Positions 2,325 through 8,280 of a stretch of 8,280 bases of DNA are shown here, piece by piece. Origin of the DNA: a virus (lineage: Duplodnaviria; Heunggongvirae; Uroviricota; Caudoviricetes); IMG/VR virus record IMGVR_UViG_2690316227_000016, one strand, 5' to 3'. A model generated the notes under the pieces. It was not told the origin of the DNA and searched no databases. It saw only the letters and a program-made list of their open reading frames with translations. The position numbers were made by a program, and so were the translations under genes. Position 1 is the first letter of the stretch, and every line of letters begins with the position of its first letter.

Positions 2325-2516
2325 TTATCCTTTGGGTTCTATGCCGCGCCGCTTTAGTTCAGTGCGCCCCAACTCTTTAAGCCAGTTGGCTAGGCTTATG
2401 CCGTCGCTCTGTGCTTCTTTGTCGAATTGCTCTTTTAGCTCTGGAGAAATTCGCATTCTGAATTGTGGGGATTGCCCGTCCCCTTTAGGGCTTTTATCGC
2501 GTTTGATTGTTGACAA
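2325..2516 (-). CDS. Arc-like ribbon-helix-helix DNA-binding protein (putative repressor)
   Basis: The segment SPQFRMRISPELKEQFDKEAQSDGISLANWLKELGR follows the phage P22 Arc pattern (PQF-x-LR...G-x-S-x-N). Only the TTG start at 2516, with AGGTGA 4 nt upstream on the minus strand, keeps the predicted beta-strand; the first ATG (M21) would remove it. Confidence 0.5.
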   Translation of the reverse strand: MSTIKRDKSPKGDGQSPQFRMRISPELKEQFDKEAQSDGISLANWLKELGRTELKRRGIEPKG

Positions 2517-2561
2517 GTGGTCACCTATTGAATTAGCCTTTCCATTGTTAGGTGGTCACCT
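2517..2561. promoter_or_regulatory. Divergent control region with two GTGGTCACCT direct repeats (2517-2526, 2552-2561) and a TTGACA hexamer (2510-2515)
   Basis: Exact 10-mer repeated 35 bp apart. Each contains the odd-centred palindrome GGTCACC. The repeats lie between the divergently oriented Arc-like gene and the Icd-like genes. A matching -10 was not found. Confidence 0.4.
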
Positions 2562-2588
2562 TAACACAAGAGCACTTAAAAAAGCAAA

Positions 2589-2619
2589 GCCCCGCAAGTG
2601 TCATTACCACTCGCAGGGC
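2589..2619 (+). promoter_or_regulatory. Leader stem-loop upstream of the first Icd-like gene
   Basis: GCCCCGCAAGTG (2589-2600) and CACTCGCAGGGC (2608-2619) pair at 10 of 12 positions around a 7-nt loop. No T-run follows, so it is not a terminator. Confidence 0.3.
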
Positions 2620-2650
2620 TTCTAACCAACAACGTAAACTAGGAGCCGTT

Positions 2651-2848
2651 ATGGTTGCCGTAAATCATATACCACACCTTGTACACACACAAACGGCCTT
2701 TGTGTGGCGTTTTCTGGCCCTGAGTGCCGGAGAATCTCAAATCATCCACGTAACCGCCTGGACGGAACGCGAAGCGCGTAGCCGTTGCCCGTCCGGTTGT
2801 GTTGCTGTATTCGCCGCCCGTATTCGTCAGGGGTCACATCATGCGTAA
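2651..2848 (+). CDS. Icd-like small protein, copy 1 (host cell division inhibitor Icd-like family, tentative)
   Basis: 65 aa with an AGGAG 6 nt upstream of ATG 2651. Shares the motifs FVWRF...T...TEREAR...FxARIRQG with the ORF at 3135. The family name is from recollection of P4-like prophage annotations, not a search. Confidence 0.5.
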   Translation: MVAVNHIPHLVHTQTAFVWRFLALSAGESQIIHVTAWTEREARSRCPSGCVAVFAARIRQGSHHA

Positions 2849-2868
2849 AAACCGCTTGCAAAAAATTA

Positions 2869-3105
2869 TAACGGGGCTGTATGCTTCCCCCGTCGCCCAC
2901 ATGGCGACCGGGTTTAGCAGCCTGAATACTGTAGCGGACAGCCGCTTATATTCCGATATGCGGTTTTTTTGTGTCCGTAAGCCTACCCATACCCGCATTA
3001 TGGCGGGGCGTAACGGGGGAGCCTTTGCGCTCGCTGGTTCCTACAGTGCCAGTCTGCTAACCCTGTTACGTCTCGCCACCCCGTTTAGCAGCGTAGTAGC
3101 GAGAC
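2869..3105 (+). repeat. Duplicated non-coding module between the Icd-like genes
   Basis: TAACGGGG at 2869-2876 and 3011-3018. GTTTAGCAGC at 2912-2921 and 3083-3092, followed by GTAGCGGACAG and GTAGCGAGAC respectively. A near-complementary CTGCTAA-CCC element sits at 3054-3063. Small hairpins at 2871-2893, 2892-2908 and 2992-3007. Confidence 0.4.
2934..2970 (+). terminator. Intrinsic terminator-like hairpin plus T7
   Basis: GCGG-aca-GCCGC (2934-2945) and a CCGC...GCGG stem (2942-2963) followed by T7 (2964-2970). It lies inside the apparent N-terminal extension of ORF 2799..3299, which argues that the extension is non-coding. Confidence 0.5.
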
Positions 3106-3134
3106 TCCTTAAAATTACTGTAGGAGCCTTTCAC

Positions 3135-3299
3135 ATGGCTGTATCCGCACGCCCTTACTTTGTCTGGCGCTTTATGCAGTGCCACCACAGCTGCATTGAT
3201 GTATTCACCGTTACCGCTGCCACTGAGCGCGAAGCACGCGCCCAGCTGCCGCACGCACATCTGATTTTTGTCGCCCGTATTCGTCAGGGGGTTTTGTGA
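3135..3299 (+). CDS. Icd-like small protein, copy 2 (paralog of 2651..2848)
   Basis: 54 aa. The TAGGAGCC ribosome-binding context 8 nt upstream of ATG 3135 mirrors that of copy 1. Conserved motifs YFVWRF, TEREARAQLP, FVARIRQG. Its TGA stop overlaps the next start (TGATG at 3297-3301). Confidence 0.5.
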   Translation: MAVSARPYFVWRFMQCHHSCIDVFTVTAATEREARAQLPHAHLIFVARIRQGVL

Positions 3300-3526
3300 T
3301 GAATAAAGTCCCTTTTGAAGTATTAAGCCACTCTGAAAACGCATTAACTAAAGCGCGCGAAATGAATGCGCTGTTAATTAAGTTAATAGACGTGCCGGAA
3401 GATGGTGGAGAACCTGCATCATTAATATTTGCCGCCGTTCAGACATTACTATCGCCTGTAATTGATGAACTGGATAAGGCGATGGCAATTCACGAAAATA
3501 ATAAAGCGCCCCACACCGGAGAATAA
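3299..3526 (+). CDS. Hypothetical small acidic protein (75 aa)
   Basis: ATG 3299 overlaps the stop of the preceding gene, suggesting translational coupling. No family recognised. Confidence 0.45.
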   Translation: MNKVPFEVLSHSENALTKAREMNALLIKLIDVPEDGGEPASLIFAAVQTLLSPVIDELDKAMAIHENNKAPHTGE

Positions 3527-3531
3527 AAATA

Positions 3532-3831
3532 ATGAAACTTAAATATCCTGGCTTAACTGCCAGCGGCAAAACTCGCACTAAATTCATGTGCGGGGATATT
3601 TACCGCGATAAGTACGGCGGAACGGTAATGATTAAGGGCGTGGAGGAACGGCGCGTAACTTACCGCCGTGAAGGCTACGAATATGATTGCGTTATGCCTG
3701 TTTATCAGTTCGACCGTGATTTTTATCTGGTACAGGCAGCGCCCCGCAGTAAGCCAACCAGCAGGGAGAAAGCACGCGCCAATATTCAGGAAATAAGAAA
3801 GATGTTGAACGTATTCAGGGGTAAAAAATGA
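3532..3831 (+). CDS. Hypothetical protein (99 aa)
   Basis: Begins MKLKYPG. Its stop overlaps the start of the replication ATPase (ATGA at 3828-3831). Protein-like composition; possibly a prophage DUF family, unverified. Confidence 0.5.
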   Translation: MKLKYPGLTASGKTRTKFMCGDIYRDKYGGTVMIKGVEERRVTYRREGYEYDCVMPVYQFDRDFYLVQAAPRSKPTSREKARANIQEIRKMLNVFRGKK

Positions 3832-5237
3832 AACTTGCACCGAACGTAAAACAATTACCGAAAGACAAATACACCGAAGCAATTATTTTCGCGGGGAATG
3901 ATGCGCACTCATTTGCAGAGCACTACATCATTGCACAGGCCAAAAAAGCAGGCGATCCAGTCCCCCCCGTTTATCTGGGGTGTTATCAGTTAAGCGAACT
4001 GGATAACCTCCAGATTGTTGATGATGGGCGATACAGGGCGACGGTGATACGCGCCGGAAATATTGAAGAGCCGCAGCTGTTAACCATCGCCACGAAACTG
4101 GCGATCGCCGGAGTCCAGGAGGCGCGGCTAATTTCTGAAAATTTCGAATTGCTGGAGGAATGGAACGACCAGCTTCCACGGCTTAGGGAGGCATGGGAAC
4201 GCGGGGAAAGCCTGGTCATGAAAAAAATCCCCCAGCGAAAAACCACGCTACCGATGAGCGTTGGATCTACCGGATACGACACGCAGCTTGATTACGTGGT
4301 AAAGGGGATTATTCCGGCATCGTCGCTTTGCAGCATATACGGGGCGAGCGGTTCCTATAAATCATTCCTTGCCGGATCGTGGGCGTGTCACGTTTCCACG
4401 GGCCGCCAGTGGGGAGGCCGCAGGGTGGCGCATGGCGCTGTTCTCTATGTGGTTGGTGAAGGCGGTATTGGCGTTCCGCGTCGTGTAAAAGCCTGGGAGG
4501 TTGTGCACGGGGAGCAGGTGAAAAATCTTTACCTTGTAAACCGTCCCATCTTTCCGGCTGTCCCGCTTGATGTTGATGAACTGGTTATTGCTGCCAGCCA
4601 GGTTGAGCGGGAAACGGGTAAACCGGTTCTAATGATTATTCTGGACACGCTGGCGCGTTGCTTTGGCGGCAATGACGAAAATGACTCCCGTGACATGGGG
4701 GCGTTTATCCGTGGATGTGACGAACTGAAACGACGCACAGGGGCCACGGTGCTGGTGGTTCACCATTCCGGCAAGGATGAAACAAAGGGCGCGCGTGGTT
4801 CCAGTGCATTCCGTGCATCGCTGGACGCTGAATACAGGATACGCAGAGAGGACGCAGGAAGCGAAGCGCTGGTCATCTCATGCACCAAAATGAAGGACGC
4901 GGAGGAACTCAAAGAGGCTGCCTATGATTTGCGGGTTGTGGAGCTTTTTACCGACGCTGACGGCGAATTAATTACGTCGCTGGTGGTGGTGGATGAGCCG
5001 CGCCCACCCGTTGAACTGGAGCGCATCGAGGAGGCAGGCAACAAGACGGAAAACCATACCGCGCTATGGGGGTGCATCCGTTCACGCACACAGAACGGCG
5101 ACAAGTGCACGATCCCGCTGTTGCGTGATGACATGAAGAAGATGGGATACGAAATGAAGCACTTCCGGCGCTGGCTGGGCAAGCTGGAAAAAGACGGCGT
5201 TATCTATGTTGACGGCGATGATGTAGGGCCACTGTAA
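3828..5237 (+). CDS. Replication ATPase/helicase, RecA-like (AAA_25/RepA-type); probable satellite replication initiator
   Basis: 469 aa with a P-loop-like GASGSYKS, a Walker B-like PVLMIILD, and the VLVVHHSGKDETKGARGSSAFRASLD block typical of RepA-like NTPases. The C-terminal roughly 100 aa could be a DNA-binding domain. An iteron array follows directly. Confidence 0.85.
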   Translation: MKLAPNVKQLPKDKYTEAIIFAGNDAHSFAEHYIIAQAKKAGDPVPPVYLGCYQLSELDNLQIVDDGRYRATVIRAGNIEEPQLLTIATKLAIAGVQEARLISENFELLEEWNDQLPRLREAWERGESLVMKKIPQRKTTLPMSVGSTGYDTQLDYVVKGIIPASSLCSIYGASGSYKSFLAGSWACHVSTGRQWGGRRVAHGAVLYVVGEGGIGVPRRVKAWEVVHGEQVKNLYLVNRPIFPAVPLDVDELVIAASQVERETGKPVLMIILDTLARCFGGNDENDSRDMGAFIRGCDELKRRTGATVLVVHHSGKDETKGARGSSAFRASLDAEYRIRREDAGSEALVISCTKMKDAEELKEAAYDLRVVELFTDADGELITSLVVVDEPRPPVELERIEEAGNKTENHTALWGCIRSRTQNGDKCTIPLLRDDMKKMGYEMKHFRRWLGKLEKDGVIYVDGDDVGPL

Positions 5238-5440
5238 AAAGTGGGAAGTAAAAGTGGGGAGCATGGGGAATTTAACAAAATTTAAACACGCTTCCCCACT
5301 TTTCGACCTGTATACACCCCAAAAAGTGGGGAGCAAAAAAATCCTTATGAAACAGCATGATAAAAATTACAAATCCCACGCCTTTAACGAGGTGGGGAAT
5401 TGTGAAAAGTGGGTAGTAAAAGTGGGTATAGGTGGGGAAA
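5237..5440. repeat. Iteron array, putative replication origin
   Basis: Six full copies of AAAAGTGGG(G/T)A at 5237-5246 (ending in A rather than G/T), 5250-5260, 5293-5303 (inverted), 5322-5332, 5405-5415 and 5418-5428, plus half-sites GTGGGGA at 5392-5398 and 5432-5438. AT-rich stretches are interspersed, and the array starts at the stop codon of the replication gene. Confidence 0.6.
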
Positions 5441-5448
5441 TAACCAAA

Positions 5449-5691
5449 ATGCGCAGAGACAGAACACAGCAAAAATATAAAGCGTTAGACATGACAGAGC
5501 ACGCTTTAAAGGTGGCAATCAAAGTTATAGACCGCCACACGCGGGAAGGATACGCGAATGAACATCCCGAACTGATAAGCGCATTCATGACCACAGCGGC
5601 GGCAAACTTTGCCACGCTGACAGAACGGGAGATTGCCGAAGCGGAACAGGTAACAACCATCAACGTTAAAACCGGAGAGGTGGAATCATGA
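5449..5691 (+). CDS. Hypothetical small protein (80 aa from ATG 5449; track ORF extends to 5254 across the iterons)
   Basis: The stop overlaps the ssb start (ATGA at 5688-5691). The upstream extension is encoded by the iteron repeats and is probably not translated. No family recognised. Confidence 0.4.
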   Translation: MRRDRTQQKYKALDMTEHALKVAIKVIDRHTREGYANEHPELISAFMTTAAANFATLTEREIAEAEQVTTINVKTGEVES

Positions 5692-6098
5692 CAGCACAGA
5701 TAGCAGCTTACGGGCGGCTGGTGGACGACCCGCAGGTAAAACAGACCAGCAAGGGCACACCGATGACGCTGGCGCGTATGGCGGTATCACTGCCATGCAG
5801 TCAGGCACAGGACGGACAGGCGACGTTATGGTTATCGGTCATCGCATTTGGCAAACAGGCCGACCAACTGGCAGGACATGAGAAAGGCAACGTAATCAGC
5901 TTATCCGGCGTGATGCAGGTCAGTCAGTGGACCGGACAGAACGGGGAGACGCGTCAGGGTTATCAGGTCATTGCCGACAGCGTAATCAGTGCGAAAACGG
6001 TGCGACCAGGCGGGAACAGACGCAAGACCACAGGCACACAGGGTAATCAGCCACCAGCGGGAGGCGATGATCCTTACGGTGATGATATTCCGTTCTGA
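5688..6098 (+). CDS. ssb: Single-stranded DNA-binding protein (SSB family)
   Basis: 136 aa with an OB-fold-like N-terminal region (GRL..DP, W at about position 48, FGK, KG), a Gly/Pro/Gln-rich linker and the characteristic acidic C-terminal tail DDIPF. Confidence 0.8.
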   Translation: MTAQIAAYGRLVDDPQVKQTSKGTPMTLARMAVSLPCSQAQDGQATLWLSVIAFGKQADQLAGHEKGNVISLSGVMQVSQWTGQNGETRQGYQVIADSVISAKTVRPGGNRRKTTGTQGNQPPAGGDDPYGDDIPF

Positions 6099-6107
6099 AC
6101 GCACAGG

Positions 6108-6130
6108 CCGGAGCAATCCGGCTTTTTTTC
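6108..6130 (+). terminator. Rho-independent terminator after ssb
   Basis: GCCGGA-gcaa-TCCGGC hairpin (6108-6123) followed by T7 (6124-6130). Confidence 0.7.
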
Positions 6131-6217
6131 AAACTCTCATATCTTCAAAAATGGTTAATTAATGATAATCTATCGAAAATACTGATTATGCGATGATAAG
6201 TATCAGGAGGAAACAAA

Positions 6218-6415: not shown

Positions 6416-6577
6416 ATGGCTATCACAGAACGCGAGGCAAGCATCATTAAGGCCATTGGCGAGGAAACAAGAGACACAATAGCGCCATTGATGGAAAAGA
6501 TCGCAGAGCTTGAGACACGAATAAACAAGCTGAGTAATGAAGTTGAAGGCCTGATCTCGTTACTCGGTGAGCAATGA
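6416..6577 (+). CDS. Hypothetical small helical protein (53 aa; not in the ORF track)
   Basis: Translated by hand from ATG 6416 to TGA 6575-6577 as MAITEREASIIKAIGEETRDTIAPLMEKIAELETRINKLSNEVEGLISLLGEQ. It starts 4 nt after the previous stop and has coiled-coil-like composition. Confidence 0.3.
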   Translation: MAITEREASIIKAIGEETRDTIAPLMEKIAELETRINKLSNEVEGLISLLGEQ

Positions 6578-6580
6578 CAT

Positions 6581-6630
6581 GGGGGGGTATCATCCGGCGA
6601 AAAAAACGATCGCCACGGACACCGCCCCCC
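6581..6630. repeat. Imperfect inverted repeat capped by G7 and C6 runs
   Basis: GGGGGGG (6581-6587) and CCCCCC (6625-6630) with partly complementary arms (CCGGCG and CGCC) around an A7 centre. No T-run follows. Confidence 0.25.
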
Positions 6631-6660
6631 GTCTCATTCGTAGAAAATTTTGCTTTTCAA

Positions 6661-6684
6661 AAAAGTTACACGAAAAGTTACACC
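6661..6684 (+). repeat. Tandem 12-bp repeats AAAAGTTACACG / AAAAGTTACACC in the terS leader
   Basis: Two adjacent 12-mers read directly. The exact 12-mer AAAAGTTACACC recurs at 6927-6938 inside terS. Confidence 0.55.
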
Positions 6685-6705
6685 CCCTCAAAACGAGGTT
6701 TTTGC

Positions 6706-7194
6706 ATGGCATTAACGACCAAAAAAAAGCGGTTTGCTGATGCGTTATCAAGGGGCGCAAATCCCACGGAAGCCGCTATACATGCGGGATACAGCGAAAA
6801 GACCGCAAGGGTTAAAGGCTGGCAGCTATCCAACGATCCTGAGGTGAAAAAGTATCTTAAGGCTGTAACTTCTGATGTAACTTTTCAGGTTACAAAACCG
6901 AAAAAAGTTACAAAGAAAGTTACCGAAAAAGTTACACCGGAACGGGCATCAATTAACACCATTGAGATGATGGATAACGGCCTACCCGACCCCATCAAAG
7001 CAATGGGCAGGATACTGATTGACAACATGGACACAGATCCAAAACTGGCTTTAGATGCCGCGTTTAAGCTGGCCCAGTTCACCCACCGCAAGATCGGCAG
7101 CATTGGGAAAAAAGAGGTTAAAAAACTCAATGCCGCTAGTGTCTACTCAAATCGGTTCCCCATCCCTAAGCTACCAACAGACTTAAAACACTGA
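6706..7194 (+). CDS. terS: Terminase small subunit (Terminase_2 / SaPI-TerS-like family)
   Basis: The N-terminus KKKRFADALSRGANPTEAAIHAGYSEKTA matches the conserved HTH of Terminase_2 small terminases (KRFA...AAI.AGYS.KTA). GAGG lies 8 nt upstream of ATG 6706. The track ORF from 6574 is an untranslated in-frame extension. Confidence 0.7.
   Translation: MALTTKKKRFADALSRGANPTEAAIHAGYSEKTARVKGWQLSNDPEVKKYLKAVTSDVTFQVTKPKKVTKKVTEKVTPERASINTIEMMDNGLPDPIKAMGRILIDNMDTDPKLALDAAFKLAQFTHRKIGSIGKKEVKKLNAASVYSNRFPIPKLPTDLKH
6864..6938. repeat. Phased GT(A/T)AC array inside terS (12-bp period, both orientations)
   Basis: GTAAC at 6865 and 6877, GTTAC at 6889, 6907, 6919 and 6931, with spacings of 12, 12, 18, 12 and 12 bp. 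Encodes the VT-x-x repeat in KPKKVTKKVTEKVTPE. Confidence 0.5.
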
Positions 7195-7205
7195 GGTAGC
7201 GAACT

Positions 7206-7367
7206 ATGAGCGAATACATCACAGACCCTATTGATGTACTCACGGAAATCATGAACGACAAGCAGCAGTCGACCGAAATACGGTTACAGGCCGCCGCTGT
7301 TCTGATGCCATATTTTCACGAAACACTAAACCCGTGCTTCCAGGAGGAGGAAGAAGATGATTTCTAA
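7206..7367 (+). CDS. Hypothetical small protein with acidic tail (53 aa; not in the ORF track)
   Basis: Translated by hand as MSEYITDPIDVLTEIMNDKQQSTEIRLQAAAVLMPYFHETLNPCFQEEEEDDF. GAGG lies 9 nt upstream, and the ORF overlaps the next gene's start by 11 nt. Confidence 0.3.
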   Translation: MSEYITDPIDVLTEIMNDKQQSTEIRLQAAAVLMPYFHETLNPCFQEEEEDDF

Positions 7368-8280
7368 AAACATGAAAGGCGTGTCGGCAGTTCGCGCCGC
7401 CAGCGTGCTTACATCGTGTAAATTCAGCCATGCAGACGCTATAGAGATGACGAAAAGAAATGATCCGGCAGTATCGAAATTTCTTGAAAAATCCATTGTT
7501 GCCGGAATGACTACGGATAATATGCCGTCGCTGGTGGCAGAGCCGATAGTAAGAGAGCTTGGTGAGTATATTTTTTCGCAGTCTGTACCAGGCAAGCTAA
7601 TCAGCAGCGGGCTGAATCTTCCGTTTGGCGCAAAATTGCAGTCAATATCAGGCAAGGGTAGTAAATGGCTTAAAGAAGCCGAAGAAATCCCTGTCAAAGA
7701 GGGAGAAGTAAACGAAAGCGCGCTAAAACTGTGCAAACTTGGCGCTATTGTGATGCTGAATAACGAGCTAATCAAATTTAGCACCCCTGGCACCAATTCA
7801 GCGATCAGAGACTTGATCACATCGGAATCGGTGAAAGAAATAGATAAAAAATTTCTTTCCAGTGACAAGGAGGTGGCTGGCGTATCCCCTGAGGGCGTGC
7901 TTAATGGTGCTGATGAGGCCGAAAACTTCATAGAGCTTTTCAAAAAGCACATAGCGAACGGTAACACGCTTTCCACGTCGTCGCTAATCTTGCCCGTAGA
8001 AAACGCCTTACAGCTTACTGATGCTGAGTTCTGGCAGATAGAGCTTTTGAGAATACCGGTAATTGTGAGCGAACAGGCGGATCGCATGATGCTGATAGAC
8101 GCTCAAAAGCTGATTATTAACGTTGAAGCCACGGTTATAACCCCAACTGATGAGGCGGTAATAAAAACCGAATCAGGGGCGGTTAGCCTTTTCCAGAATG
8201 ACGCTACAGCGTTCAGGGCAATCACCTATTGCGGATGGCAAAAACTCGATAAGGCCGTCACCGTTCTGGCGAAAAGCTGA
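7357..8280 (+). CDS. Probable HK97-fold major capsid protein
   Basis: 307 aa with GGAGGAGG 6 nt upstream of ATG 7357. The C-terminal region LLRIPVIVSEQ...LIDAQ...FQNDATAFRAITYCGWQKLDKAVTVL follows the usual HK97-type capsid C-terminal pattern. The stop falls at the window end. Confidence 0.55.
   Translation: MISKNMKGVSAVRAASVLTSCKFSHADAIEMTKRNDPAVSKFLEKSIVAGMTTDNMPSLVAEPIVRELGEYIFSQSVPGKLISSGLNLPFGAKLQSISGKGSKWLKEAEEIPVKEGEVNESALKLCKLGAIVMLNNELIKFSTPGTNSAIRDLITSESVKEIDKKFLSSDKEVAGVSPEGVLNGADEAENFIELFKKHIANGNTLSTSSLILPVENALQLTDAEFWQIELLRIPVIVSEQADRMMLIDAQKLIINVEATVITPTDEAVIKTESGAVSLFQNDATAFRAITYCGWQKLDKAVTVLAKS

Follow-up and report, generated by a model that had tools for sequence, protein, structure and literature searches.

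The DNA analysed here is a stretch of 8,280 nucleotides (hereafter the window) from the IMG/VR virus record IMGVR_UViG_2690316227_000016, which is assigned to the Caudoviricetes. The window is a phage satellite of Escherichia coli of the phage-inducible chromosomal island (PICI) type. Between an icd-like gene and the gene for a replication protein, it carries two small open reading frames (ORFs). The first, ORF1, codes for an acidic protein and the second, ORF2, is an orthologue of rgdR, a gene of enterohaemorrhagic E. coli (EHEC). This part of the window contains the following genes:

3135 to 3299, plus strand: icd-like gene 2 (icd2; 54 aa, probable true extent); Shine-Dalgarno (SD) sequence and ATG read from the sequence, stop codon overlapping the ORF1 start
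3299 to 3526, plus strand: ORF1 (75 aa, acidic); match to phrog_2196 (E 7e-11); usual upstream neighbour of rgdR
3532 to 3831, plus strand: ORF2, rgdR orthologue (99 aa, basic, pI 10), CGD (C20) variant; DUF4222
3828 to 5237, plus strand: replication protein (Rep, 469 aa) with an N-terminal part of about 125 aa ("RepN") and a RepA-type AAA_25 helicase (Pfam E 3.7e-42)

Stop and start codons of these genes overlap or lie close together. In the sequence TGATG (3297-3301), the last base of the icd-like stop codon TGA (3297-3299) is also the first base of the ORF1 start codon ATG (3299-3301), for which GTG 3296 is an alternative. ORF1 ends with TAA at 3524-3526, and ORF2 begins after a gap of 5 nt with ATG 3532, preceded by GGAG at 3518-3521. 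In the sequence ATGA (3828-3831), the TGA of ORF2 (3829-3831) overlaps the ATG (3828-3830) of the gene for the 469-aa ATPase, and another ATGA (5688-5691) connects the gene upstream of ssb with ssb. The original prediction, made from the sequence of the window, had listed the two ORFs at 3299-3526 and 3532-3831 and the overlaps at 3297-3301, 3828-3831 and 5688-5691, all of which were correct when the sequence was re-read; the ORFs have 75 and 99 codons for amino acids, respectively. Its proposal that both ORFs are translationally tied to their flanking genes also holds, with overlapping or abutting stop and start codons that form one rightward chain through ssb.

ORF2 is an orthologue of rgdR

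ORF2 matches the Pfam family DUF4222 (PF13973) over residues 18-68 with 79.5 bits (cut-off 27, E 1.4e-22); no NCBIfam model was found for it. It is 93% identical to ECs1581 over the full 99 aa without gaps and 98% identical to the copy on the nearest E. coli island. ORF2 falls within the orthology definition of Flockhart et al., which asks for 99 aa and more than 77% identity over the full length. By sequence comparison, ORF2 has been shown to be rgdR and to encode a DUF4222 protein. The statement that neither small protein belongs to a recognisable family has therefore to be corrected for ORF2 and stands for ORF1, which no model in Pfam or NCBIfam matches.

ECs1581 is located on the prophage-like element Sp7 (OI-51/CP-933C) of E. 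coli O157 strain Sakai and was named RgdR by Flockhart et al. (PMC3378721). The protein of 99 aa (pI 10) activates the LEE1 promoter of the enterocyte effacement locus (LEE) and thereby type III secretion, independently of Ler, GrlA and QseC (PMC3378721). Moreover, RgdR lowers motility and raises the binding of Congo red, and it binds DNA non-specifically, with no specific target (PMC3378721). The orthologue ECED1_1787 of strain ED1a, which carries CGD, neither activates type III secretion nor binds DNA, and the exchange C20R restores its activity; the exchange R20C alone leaves ECs1581 active (PMC3378721). RgdR has also been reported to be encoded by all E. coli PICIs analysed by Fillol-Salom et al. 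(PMC6092414). Reviews published up to 2024 state that RgdR affects motility "via an unknown mechanism" (PMC10877973). The paper on EcCIMP1 describes a different island regulator and contains nothing on RgdR (PMC11773190).

The protein encoded in the window has C20-G21-D22 instead of the RGD tripeptide at residues 20-22 of ECs1581. Of 84 full-length copies, 67 have R at residue 20, whereas N occurs there in 8, C in 7 and P in 2; because this residue varies, "RGD" is not a feature of the family. In 33 aligned homologues, G21 and D22 are invariant. The window protein shares five of the six ED1a substitutions (A10, C20, K27, R45 and D61), differs from ED1a in retaining K35, and has two substitutions of its own (S65Y and K89R). 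An AlphaFold2 model based on the 33-sequence alignment (mean predicted local distance difference test score, pLDDT, 76; core about 90), which is informative as to fold class only, predicts a disordered basic tail (residues 1-14), a five-strand SH3/Tudor-like barrel (23-68) and a C-terminal helix (77-95). The barrel is 10-18% identical to RNA-polymerase-binding Tudor domains and DUF1653, with many unrelated SH3-like domains scoring nearly as well. At the sequence level, no relationship was found between RgdR and the RNA-polymerase-binding Tudor domains of UvrD/PcrA (C-terminal domain) and CarD/Mfd (RID). A search of the PDB with profiles of ORF1 and ORF2 yielded chance-level matches only. When one genome per species was scanned, RgdR matches appeared only in Shigella flexneri and E. 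albertii; at that sensitivity, the 99-aa type of RgdR is thus confined to Escherichia and Shigella.

A truncated DUF4222 copy of 63 aa is present on OI-43/48 in the record of strain EDL933 (locus L099, 3016-3207), an orphan beside insertion sequence elements without a replication gene in its vicinity. This copy, which Flockhart et al. mentioned (PMC3378721), is probably a remnant.

Linkage of rgdR to replication genes in satellites

The neighbourhood of rgdR was compared in a sample of 85 loci anchored on rgdR, consisting of the window, 80 IMG/VR loci, two genomes and two reference islands. The overlap of 4 nt (ATGA) between the rgdR stop codon and the rep start codon is kept in 82 of the 85 loci, and this overlap, which the RgdR and PICI papers cited here do not mention, spans three unrelated helicase classes. 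The first class combines RepN with AAA_25 (about 469 aa, 26 loci). The second, RepN with D5_N/DUF5906 (about 595 aa, 51 loci), is the commonest among the sister islands and 39% identical to the helicase half of the alpha protein of satellite P4. The third consists of RepN, DUF927 and HTH_56 (710 aa, 5 loci). Apart from the roughly 125 N-terminal residues of RepN, which are 44-50% identical, the three classes are unrelated. No Pfam family matches RepN. In a second sample, anchored on RepN, a DUF4222 ORF ends at the rep start in 51 of 77 loci, with an overlap of 4 nt in 50 of them. The known RgdR proteins of OI-51/CP-933C/Sp7, ED1a (ECED1_1787) and CFT073 (C1493) agree with that of the window in size, pI (about 10), position and the ATGA onto the replication gene; the Rep protein downstream differs, being a DUF927 protein in Sp7 and a RepA/AAA_25 helicase in the window.

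The junctions further upstream are conserved as well. An ORF ends exactly 5 nt before the ATG of rgdR in 77 of the 85 loci, with the conserved junction CGGAGAATAAAAATAATG, and in 70 of 76 loci the ATG of the ORF1-family gene overlaps or abuts the stop codon of the ORF before it. These stop/start junctions are conserved far beyond chance expectation. Moreover, both ORFs evolve as proteins. The ratio of nonsynonymous to synonymous substitutions (dN/dS), calculated among related loci according to Nei and Gojobori, is 0.21 for type A and 0.27-0.31 for type B of ORF1 (for the types, see below) and 0.27 for ORF2 as a whole, falling to 0.17 in the core (residues 20-68). The only relaxed segments are a loop of ORF1 (residues 31-43, 0.72) and the N-terminal tail of ORF2 (residues 1-19, 0.64-0.71). 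ORF1 and ORF2 are genuine coding genes under purifying selection, and both are kept across related islands.

RepN (window 3828-4202; L002 4016-4393; L011 3826-4203) has the pattern MK.APN.K...TE.IIFAG.DA...PPV.L...RAG...LA.AGV and occupies the position that the primase domain has in P4 alpha. Some RepN genes are preceded by a member of a family of about 110 aa instead of rgdR; the assignment of this family to DUF5375 (P4 ORF106) was rejected, as there is no Pfam match.

DUF4222 genes in lambdoid phages

At default stringency, neither tblastn with ORF1 and ORF2 nor megablast with the whole window gave a match among 50,697 phage genomes. The DUF4222 core was found in 111 of the 50,697 phage records only when the core was used as query at a relaxed E-value. 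The phages named in these records are temperate enterobacterial phages, with one exception labelled Elizabethkingia. Their DUF4222 ORFs are shorter (59-70 aa; Pfam E 8e-19 and 1.7e-15) and are located after cI/cro/cII-like genes and before replication genes. In 8 of the 12 loci examined, among them those of Serratia phage BZS1, Yersinia phage YeP2, Providencia phage PSTCR8lys, EKP1, SfII, mEp390, vB_EcoS-733R5 and Klebsiella phage phi6.3, the DUF4222 stop codon overlaps the start of an O-like initiator gene by 4, 11 or 17 nt. Counting satellites and phages together, the DUF4222 gene is found directly 5' of four structurally unrelated types of initiator.

In several deposited phage genomes, the 59-aa DUF4222 ORF is unannotated. 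The annotation placed over it is a wrong-strand ORF, a YmfM-like ORF in another frame or an "Ant/regulatory protein" with an over-extended start (L088, L087 and L086, 3980-4159; L094, 2001-2180; L095, 2001-2186; L092, 2501-2680). A fusion of DUF4222 to Ant/Rha in Stx phages and SfV was considered and rejected because the ORF lies in another frame than the annotated gene.

ORF1 encodes a small acidic companion of RgdR

ORF1 is an uncharacterised companion of rgdR and belongs to a small family of Escherichia and Shigella. A search with the single sequence returned 92 homologues and a profile search 166, all annotated as hypothetical; all those with a source name come from Escherichia or Shigella. 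An exhaustive profile search found 13 representatives among 1.84 billion proteins. The AlphaFold2 model of ORF1 (pLDDT 82) predicts a hairpin of two helices (residues 6-30 and 40-69), for which the structural matches are generic. With a pI of 4.9 and a net charge of -6, ORF1 is the electrostatic opposite of RgdR (pI 10, net charge +11.5). In about 73 of the 85 loci, the ORF that ends 5 nt before rgdR belongs to the ORF1 family, and four unrelated ORFs are found at the same spacing. The family has at least three divergent subtypes, namely A (75 aa, window), B (77 aa, the commonest) and C (80 aa, ECs1580). A linkage of these subtypes to RgdR tails or Rep classes was examined as a sign of co-evolution and rejected, as the modules assort freely.

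Two further observations concern the ORF1 slot. In locus L001, the ORF1-family gene (10120-10353) is of type B with an internal stop codon (a RefSeq pseudogene), and two extra small ORFs lie between it and icd2; thus, the slot between icd and rgdR varies even among near-identical islands. At the icd2/ORF1 junction (window 3284-3299; L019, L049 and others), the G run of the ORF1 SD sequence consists of 5, 7, 8 or 9 G. In L049, which has 9 G, icd2 and ORF1 are fused to an ORF of 228 aa, which may reflect a sequencing error or slippage.

The C4 RNA-icd switch upstream of ORF1

Upstream of ORF1, the window contains the elements of an immunity switch of the type known from phages P1 and P7 and satellite P4:

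2510 to 2561, plus strand: candidate early rightward promoter (TTGACA at 2510-2515 as a perfect -35 hexamer, 18-nt spacer, TAGCCT), inferred from a reading of the sequence and repeats D4/I20
2515 to 2526 and 2550 to 2561, plus strand: operator-like near-palindrome A(A/G)GTGGTCACCT at each of the two places, candidate operators for the early promoter
2651 to 2848, plus strand: icd-like gene 1 (icd1, 65 aa); NCBIfam phage_ICD_like (E 1.4e-17); SD sequence TAGGAG at 2640-2645
2879 to 2928, plus strand: a1/b1-type C4 target sequences; Rfam RF03163 (45.5 bits, gathering score 46.7, E 3.6e-9)
2996 to 3083, plus strand: C4 antisense (immunity) RNA of the P1/P7 c4 and P4 CI family; Rfam RF01695, full length
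3085 to 3128, plus strand: a2/b2-like mRNA target sites, from a scan for complementarity to C4

The C4 RNA scores 71.5 bits against a gathering score of 45 (E 7.7e-13), and the a1/b1 match falls 1.2 bits short of its gathering score. Positions 3085-3091 are complementary to C4 3054-3060, and positions 3116-3128, which span the SD sequence of icd2 (TAGGAG, 3121-3126), to the C4 loop 3036-3048. The latter pairing comprises 9 Watson-Crick pairs, or 13 pairs with G-U, and a run of 9 nt was reached in 5 of 1000 shuffles. Both the C4 RNA gene and the a1/b1 targets lie inside an ORF of 166 aa (2799-3299), which also holds a sub-threshold match to isrK (Rfam) and whose copy in a sister island is called "Icd-like protein" in RefSeq. 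Since the NCBIfam Icd-like match is restricted to residues 121-163 of this ORF and the C4 RNA occupies its upstream part, the real icd2 is probably the 54-aa ORF at 3135-3299 and the 166-aa ORF an over-extension. The second Icd-like copy described earlier is therefore retained as this short gene, and the long ORF assigned to it holds the C4 RNA and its targets. The length of icd1 equals that of the RefSeq coding sequence in the 95% identical island H1.

The candidate promoter and the operator-like sites are located between a divergent Arc/YlcI-like gene and icd1; a stricter scan for promoter consensus sequences did not call the candidate at 2510. A G+C-rich hairpin of 15 pairs at 2586-2622 was scored as a terminator on the minus strand. 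It is placed to end the upstream neighbour of the Arc/YlcI-like gene or to fold in the plus-strand leader before icd1.

In P1, C4 RNA governs the ant gene, for the expression of which icd is "apparently required" (PMC8201110). The CI-dependent termination of P4 is blocked when the upstream ORF is translated (PMC10111431). The immI region of P1 and P7 (c4, icd, ant) has in common with the window the C4 RNA, the upstream a1b1 sites, the complementary sites over the ribosome-binding site of icd and the linkage of icd to the next gene. The window differs in having two icd-like genes and in that ORF1, rgdR and the replication module follow icd instead of ant; indeed, neither ORF1 nor ORF2 matches the Ant, AntA or KilA-N domains in Pfam, NCBIfam or PHROG. 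At the Rfam gathering threshold, the C4 RNA was also detected in three sister islands and P4; it was not found above this threshold in the Sakai island and three other islands.

The left operon of P4 consists of CI RNA, an Icd-like ORF, epsilon, ORF151, ORF106 and alpha. P4 and the window are alike in having a C4-family immunity RNA, an Icd-like ORF and small proteins with overlapping stop and start codons, followed by a replication protein. In P4, the CI RNA is located at 8420-8507, the Icd-like ORF ends at 8168 and epsilon starts at 8175, so that its start overlaps the end of the Icd-like ORF. In the window, ORF1 is likewise the first cistron after C4 RNA and icd2 and overlaps the end of the latter. 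Thus, as a member of the chain behind the C4 antisense RNA-icd switch, ORF1 occupies the position of epsilon without being homologous to it. The original prediction had compared the slot of both ORFs with that of epsilon, the derepressor of the helper phage; the comparison is exact for the position of ORF1 and loose for ORF2, and it does not extend to homology of either protein with epsilon. Indeed, P4 epsilon scores 167.9 bits on the Pfam family Derepression (PF25738), to which neither ORF1 nor ORF2 gave a match at E-values up to 1. BLASTP and profile searches of ORF1 and ORF2 against P4 epsilon, ORF151, ORF106 (DUF5375) and alpha returned nothing below an E-value of 0.2. P4 ORF151 was considered as a remote relative of DUF4222 because of a GEIYR motif and rejected (no Pfam match, BLASTP E 0.62). 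Two further differences are that RepN replaces the alpha primase domain in islands of the window type, and that the window has terS and a capsid-family gene in place of the P4 genes sid, psu and delta.

Origin-like region, ssb and the end of the chain

Downstream of rep, the chain continues with the following features:

5238 to 5448, no strand assigned: origin-like region with an AT-rich stretch (about 5335-5390) between iterons AAAAGTGGG(G/A/T)A, of which there are about eight in both orientations
5449 to 5691, plus strand: small gene (about 80 aa); phrog_1231 (E 1.1e-49, residues 64-145 of the long ORF)
5688 to 6098, plus strand: ssb, last cistron of the chain; Pfam SSB, TIGR00621
6105 to 6131, plus strand: terminator-like hairpin (8 pairs, 5 of them G-C) followed by the T run TTTTTTTCAAAC, probable end of the operon

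By its repeat families (D1-D3 and I1-I8) and a dip of the GC content to 0.42, the region 5238-5448 looks like the replication origin of the island, as the PICI layout predicts. ATG 5449, and not GTG 5254, is the most likely start of the gene preceding ssb, because the match to PHROG 1231 is limited to residues 64-145 of the long ORF. The ORF from GTG 5254 crosses the iteron region, and its part ahead of ATG 5449 is probably spurious. The phrog_1231 gene adjoins ssb in nearly all related loci. No convincing terminator was found on the plus strand between about 2550 and 6100, where the three weak consensus matches all lie within coding sequences. The proposed single polycistron from the second icd-like gene to ssb is thus plausible: a strong terminator occurs only after ssb, and the origin-like region is embedded in the unit.

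The element and its relatives

The window begins with genes for a P4-type integrase (1-1242), an AlpA-like helix-turn-helix protein (1739-1945) and, on the minus strand, an Arc/YlcI-like protein (2325-2516). These are followed by two Icd-like genes, ORF1, ORF2, the RepA-family AAA_25 helicase, the small gene and ssb, and finally by terS and an HK97-type capsid-family gene. The hallmarks of Gram-negative PICIs are present, namely an integrase, an AlpA-like regulator, pri/rep with a downstream ori, unidirectional genes and a size of about 8-15 kb without lysis or tail genes. Gram-negative PICIs are divided into an Integration, a Bro/immunity, a Replication and a Late zone and have their ori downstream of pri (PMC10111431). 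The window shares with EcCICFT073 and EcCIEDL933 the int and AlpA-like genes, the unidirectional gene order, the pri/rep-ori-ssb module, the late terS and capsid-family genes and, as judged from its nearest relative, the integration adjoining a tRNA gene. It differs in the small size (about 8.8 kb in the nearest relative) and in its second zone, which consists of the divergent Arc/YlcI-like gene and the C4 RNA unit.

The nearest relative in a complete genome (L001, island H1) is 95% identical, about 8.8 kb in size and adjoins tRNA-Pro between yejM and yejO of E. coli. The RefSeq annotation of the relative island places the same gene, as DUF4222, between the Icd-like genes and a "helicase RepA family protein". 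The region 2500-6200 is matched in part in 1678 of 5426 complete E. coli genomes. Apart from the linkage to replication genes, the locus is a typical, ordinary copy of a common E. coli satellite module. A PADLOC search did not detect a defence system. The late zone (6574-8280) comprises only terS, whose true start is probably near 6706, a 53-aa ORF and the gene for the 307-aa HK97-type capsid-family protein. The 53-aa ORF (7206-7367) resembles an internal piece of terS (phrog_641, positions 89-125). The capsid-family protein closes the island, and as a lone capsid homologue it recalls the capsid-size redirection proteins of other satellites.

The gene order is also kept in NZ_CP148328.1 (L098), a circular "plasmid" of 10,790 bp that encodes an integrase, AlpA, YlcI/YnfO, an Icd-like protein, a small ORF, DUF4222, a primase-like protein and a prohead protease/capsid fusion. 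In this record, the order from the Icd-like gene through the small ORF and DUF4222 to the ATGA onto the primase-like gene is maintained with a DUF4222 protein of only 31% identity. The record may represent an excised circular satellite that was assembled as a plasmid.

Possible functions of RgdR and ORF1

Among the roles suggested for the two ORFs, that of a replication accessory protein is the best fit for ORF2 because of its synteny. Taking synteny, fold and charge together, we tentatively favour the view that RgdR is an accessory protein of replication initiation, with its effects on virulence as by-products, with gating by C4 RNA and icd, and with ORF1 as an acidic partner; this view as a whole appears quite possible. 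According to this model, the C4 antisense RNA would pair with the ribosome-binding site of icd2. By way of the overlapping or 5-nt-spaced stop/start codons that couple icd2, ORF1, rgdR and rep, the translation of ORF1-rgdR-rep-ori-ssb, and probably also transcript read-through, would depend on translation of icd2, as the stop/start chain suggests by analogy with P1 and P4. Under immunity, the replication module would be kept low, and its products would be made together once immunity is lifted. RgdR would be made along with the initiator, whatever the catalytic type of the latter. As synteny and fold suggest, it would most likely help the origin to become competent for initiation, acting via DNA or via a host factor associated with DNA or RNA polymerase. 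Activation of LEE1 and type III secretion and repression of motility would then follow incidentally from the low level at which the resident island expresses RgdR. ORF1, which is acidic and tightly coupled to the basic RgdR, would most likely be a partner or modulator.

Several observations weigh against this model. The RgdR phenotypes tested so far (LEE1, motility, Congo red) are all transcriptional. Only about 111 of the 50,697 phage records carry DUF4222, so that most O-type replicons manage without it. In the 4 remaining of the 12 phage loci (Stx1a_499, Stx2a_499, SfV and 118970_sal3), DUF4222 and O are separated by two ORFs, one annotated as Rha/Ant and one small. Unrelated ORFs precede rep in 26 of the 77 RepN-anchored loci, and rgdR is thus common yet not obligatory before rep. 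The adjacency may be a mere module boundary at which accessory genes gather. As to the gate, deletion of rgdR in EHEC has a phenotype without induction, and some rgdR expression must therefore escape any gate; moreover, the Sakai island is without a C4 match. For the partnership of ORF1 and RgdR, adjacency and opposite charge are all that can be adduced, and the ORF1 subtypes assort freely. A more general version of the accessory model, according to which DUF4222/RgdR is a widespread initiation factor of lambdoid phages and PICIs that works via a global factor of the host and is restrained by ORF1 until induction, is rather improbable. In this version, RgdR would be produced by translational coupling to the initiator of the respective element and would, for instance, bind RNA polymerase by its Tudor-like barrel or displace H-NS from AT-rich origin DNA, and the effects on LEE, flagella and curli in EHEC would be a by-product.

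It is somewhat unlikely that RgdR is a transcription factor or cofactor that reprogrammes the host as a "moron" or virulence regulator, via RNA polymerase or antagonism of H-NS, with an incidental adjacency to rep and an unrelated ORF1. Increased LEE and curli expression together with decreased motility resembles the loss of H-NS function. The sole experiments on RgdR revealed activation of LEE1, repression of motility, a rise in Congo red binding and non-specific DNA binding (PMC3378721). However, DUF4222 is kept in phages and satellites of hosts without LEE, and the overlap of 4 nt with the initiator gene recurs across four unrelated initiator types. Moreover, the inactive CGD variant ECED1_1787 persists (PMC3378721), CGD is found in 7 of 84 copies, and rgdR has a dN/dS of 0.27.

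The position of ORF1 gives some appeal to the idea that it acts, perhaps together with ORF2, on the helper phage, as an anti-repressor or interference protein resembling epsilon or P1 Ant. Like epsilon in P4, ORF1 opens the series of cistrons behind the C4 RNA-icd unit and overlaps the stop codon of icd; in P1 immI, this place is taken by ant. Between icd and rgdR, the number of extra small ORFs varies from 0 to 3, and the at least three divergent subtypes of ORF1 assort freely, with the central loop evolving fastest (dN/dS 0.72). In addition, the ORF1 family is confined to satellites of Escherichia and Shigella and was not found in the phage genomes searched. Nevertheless, a function directed at the helper is unlikely: neither ORF1 nor ORF2 is similar to epsilon (Pfam Derepression), Ant, ORF151 or ORF106, and dN/dS never exceeds 1. 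Gram-negative PICIs are described as being induced via AlpA, and int, alpA and pri as the three essential genes for induction and transfer (PMC10111431); derepression of the helper has no place in this description. Furthermore, lambdoid phages of the helper type carry DUF4222 as well, which makes ORF2 an unlikely weapon against helpers.

The unbroken chain of overlapping or 5-nt-spaced codons from a start controlled by antisense RNA to rep would also suit coupling leader cistrons such as tap of plasmid R1 or repY of IncI plasmids, whose proteins have no function. Both C-terminal ends indeed encode the SD sequence of the next gene (GGAG in the codons for ...TGE and the stop codon, AGGGG in those for ...FRGKK and the stop codon). 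However, purifying selection acts on the whole length of both proteins, beyond the junctions, both are predicted to fold with good confidence, and conservation of the DUF4222 domain reaches down to identities of about 30%. Moreover, RgdR supplied in trans causes phenotypes that are altered by point mutations (PMC3378721). That ORF1 and ORF2 are mere leader cistrons is therefore very improbable.

Implications

The rgdR gene and its presence in E. coli PICIs are already known, and ORF1 is its uncharacterised acidic neighbour. The linkage of DUF4222 genes to initiator genes is not mentioned in the RgdR and PICI literature cited here and is directly testable. The locus also bears on annotation: long "Icd-like" ORFs can conceal the gene of a C4 RNA, and small DUF4222 ORFs are missed or overlaid by ORFs in a wrong frame in several phage records. 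Since 2012, RgdR has been treated in the EHEC literature as a horizontally acquired virulence regulator without a known mechanism. The finding that rgdR is joined to an initiator gene and, in this satellite, to a C4 RNA/icd switch provides the first concrete hypothesis for its native role in the mobile element. The same hypothesis offers a simple reason why such a "regulator" is present in strains without LEE.

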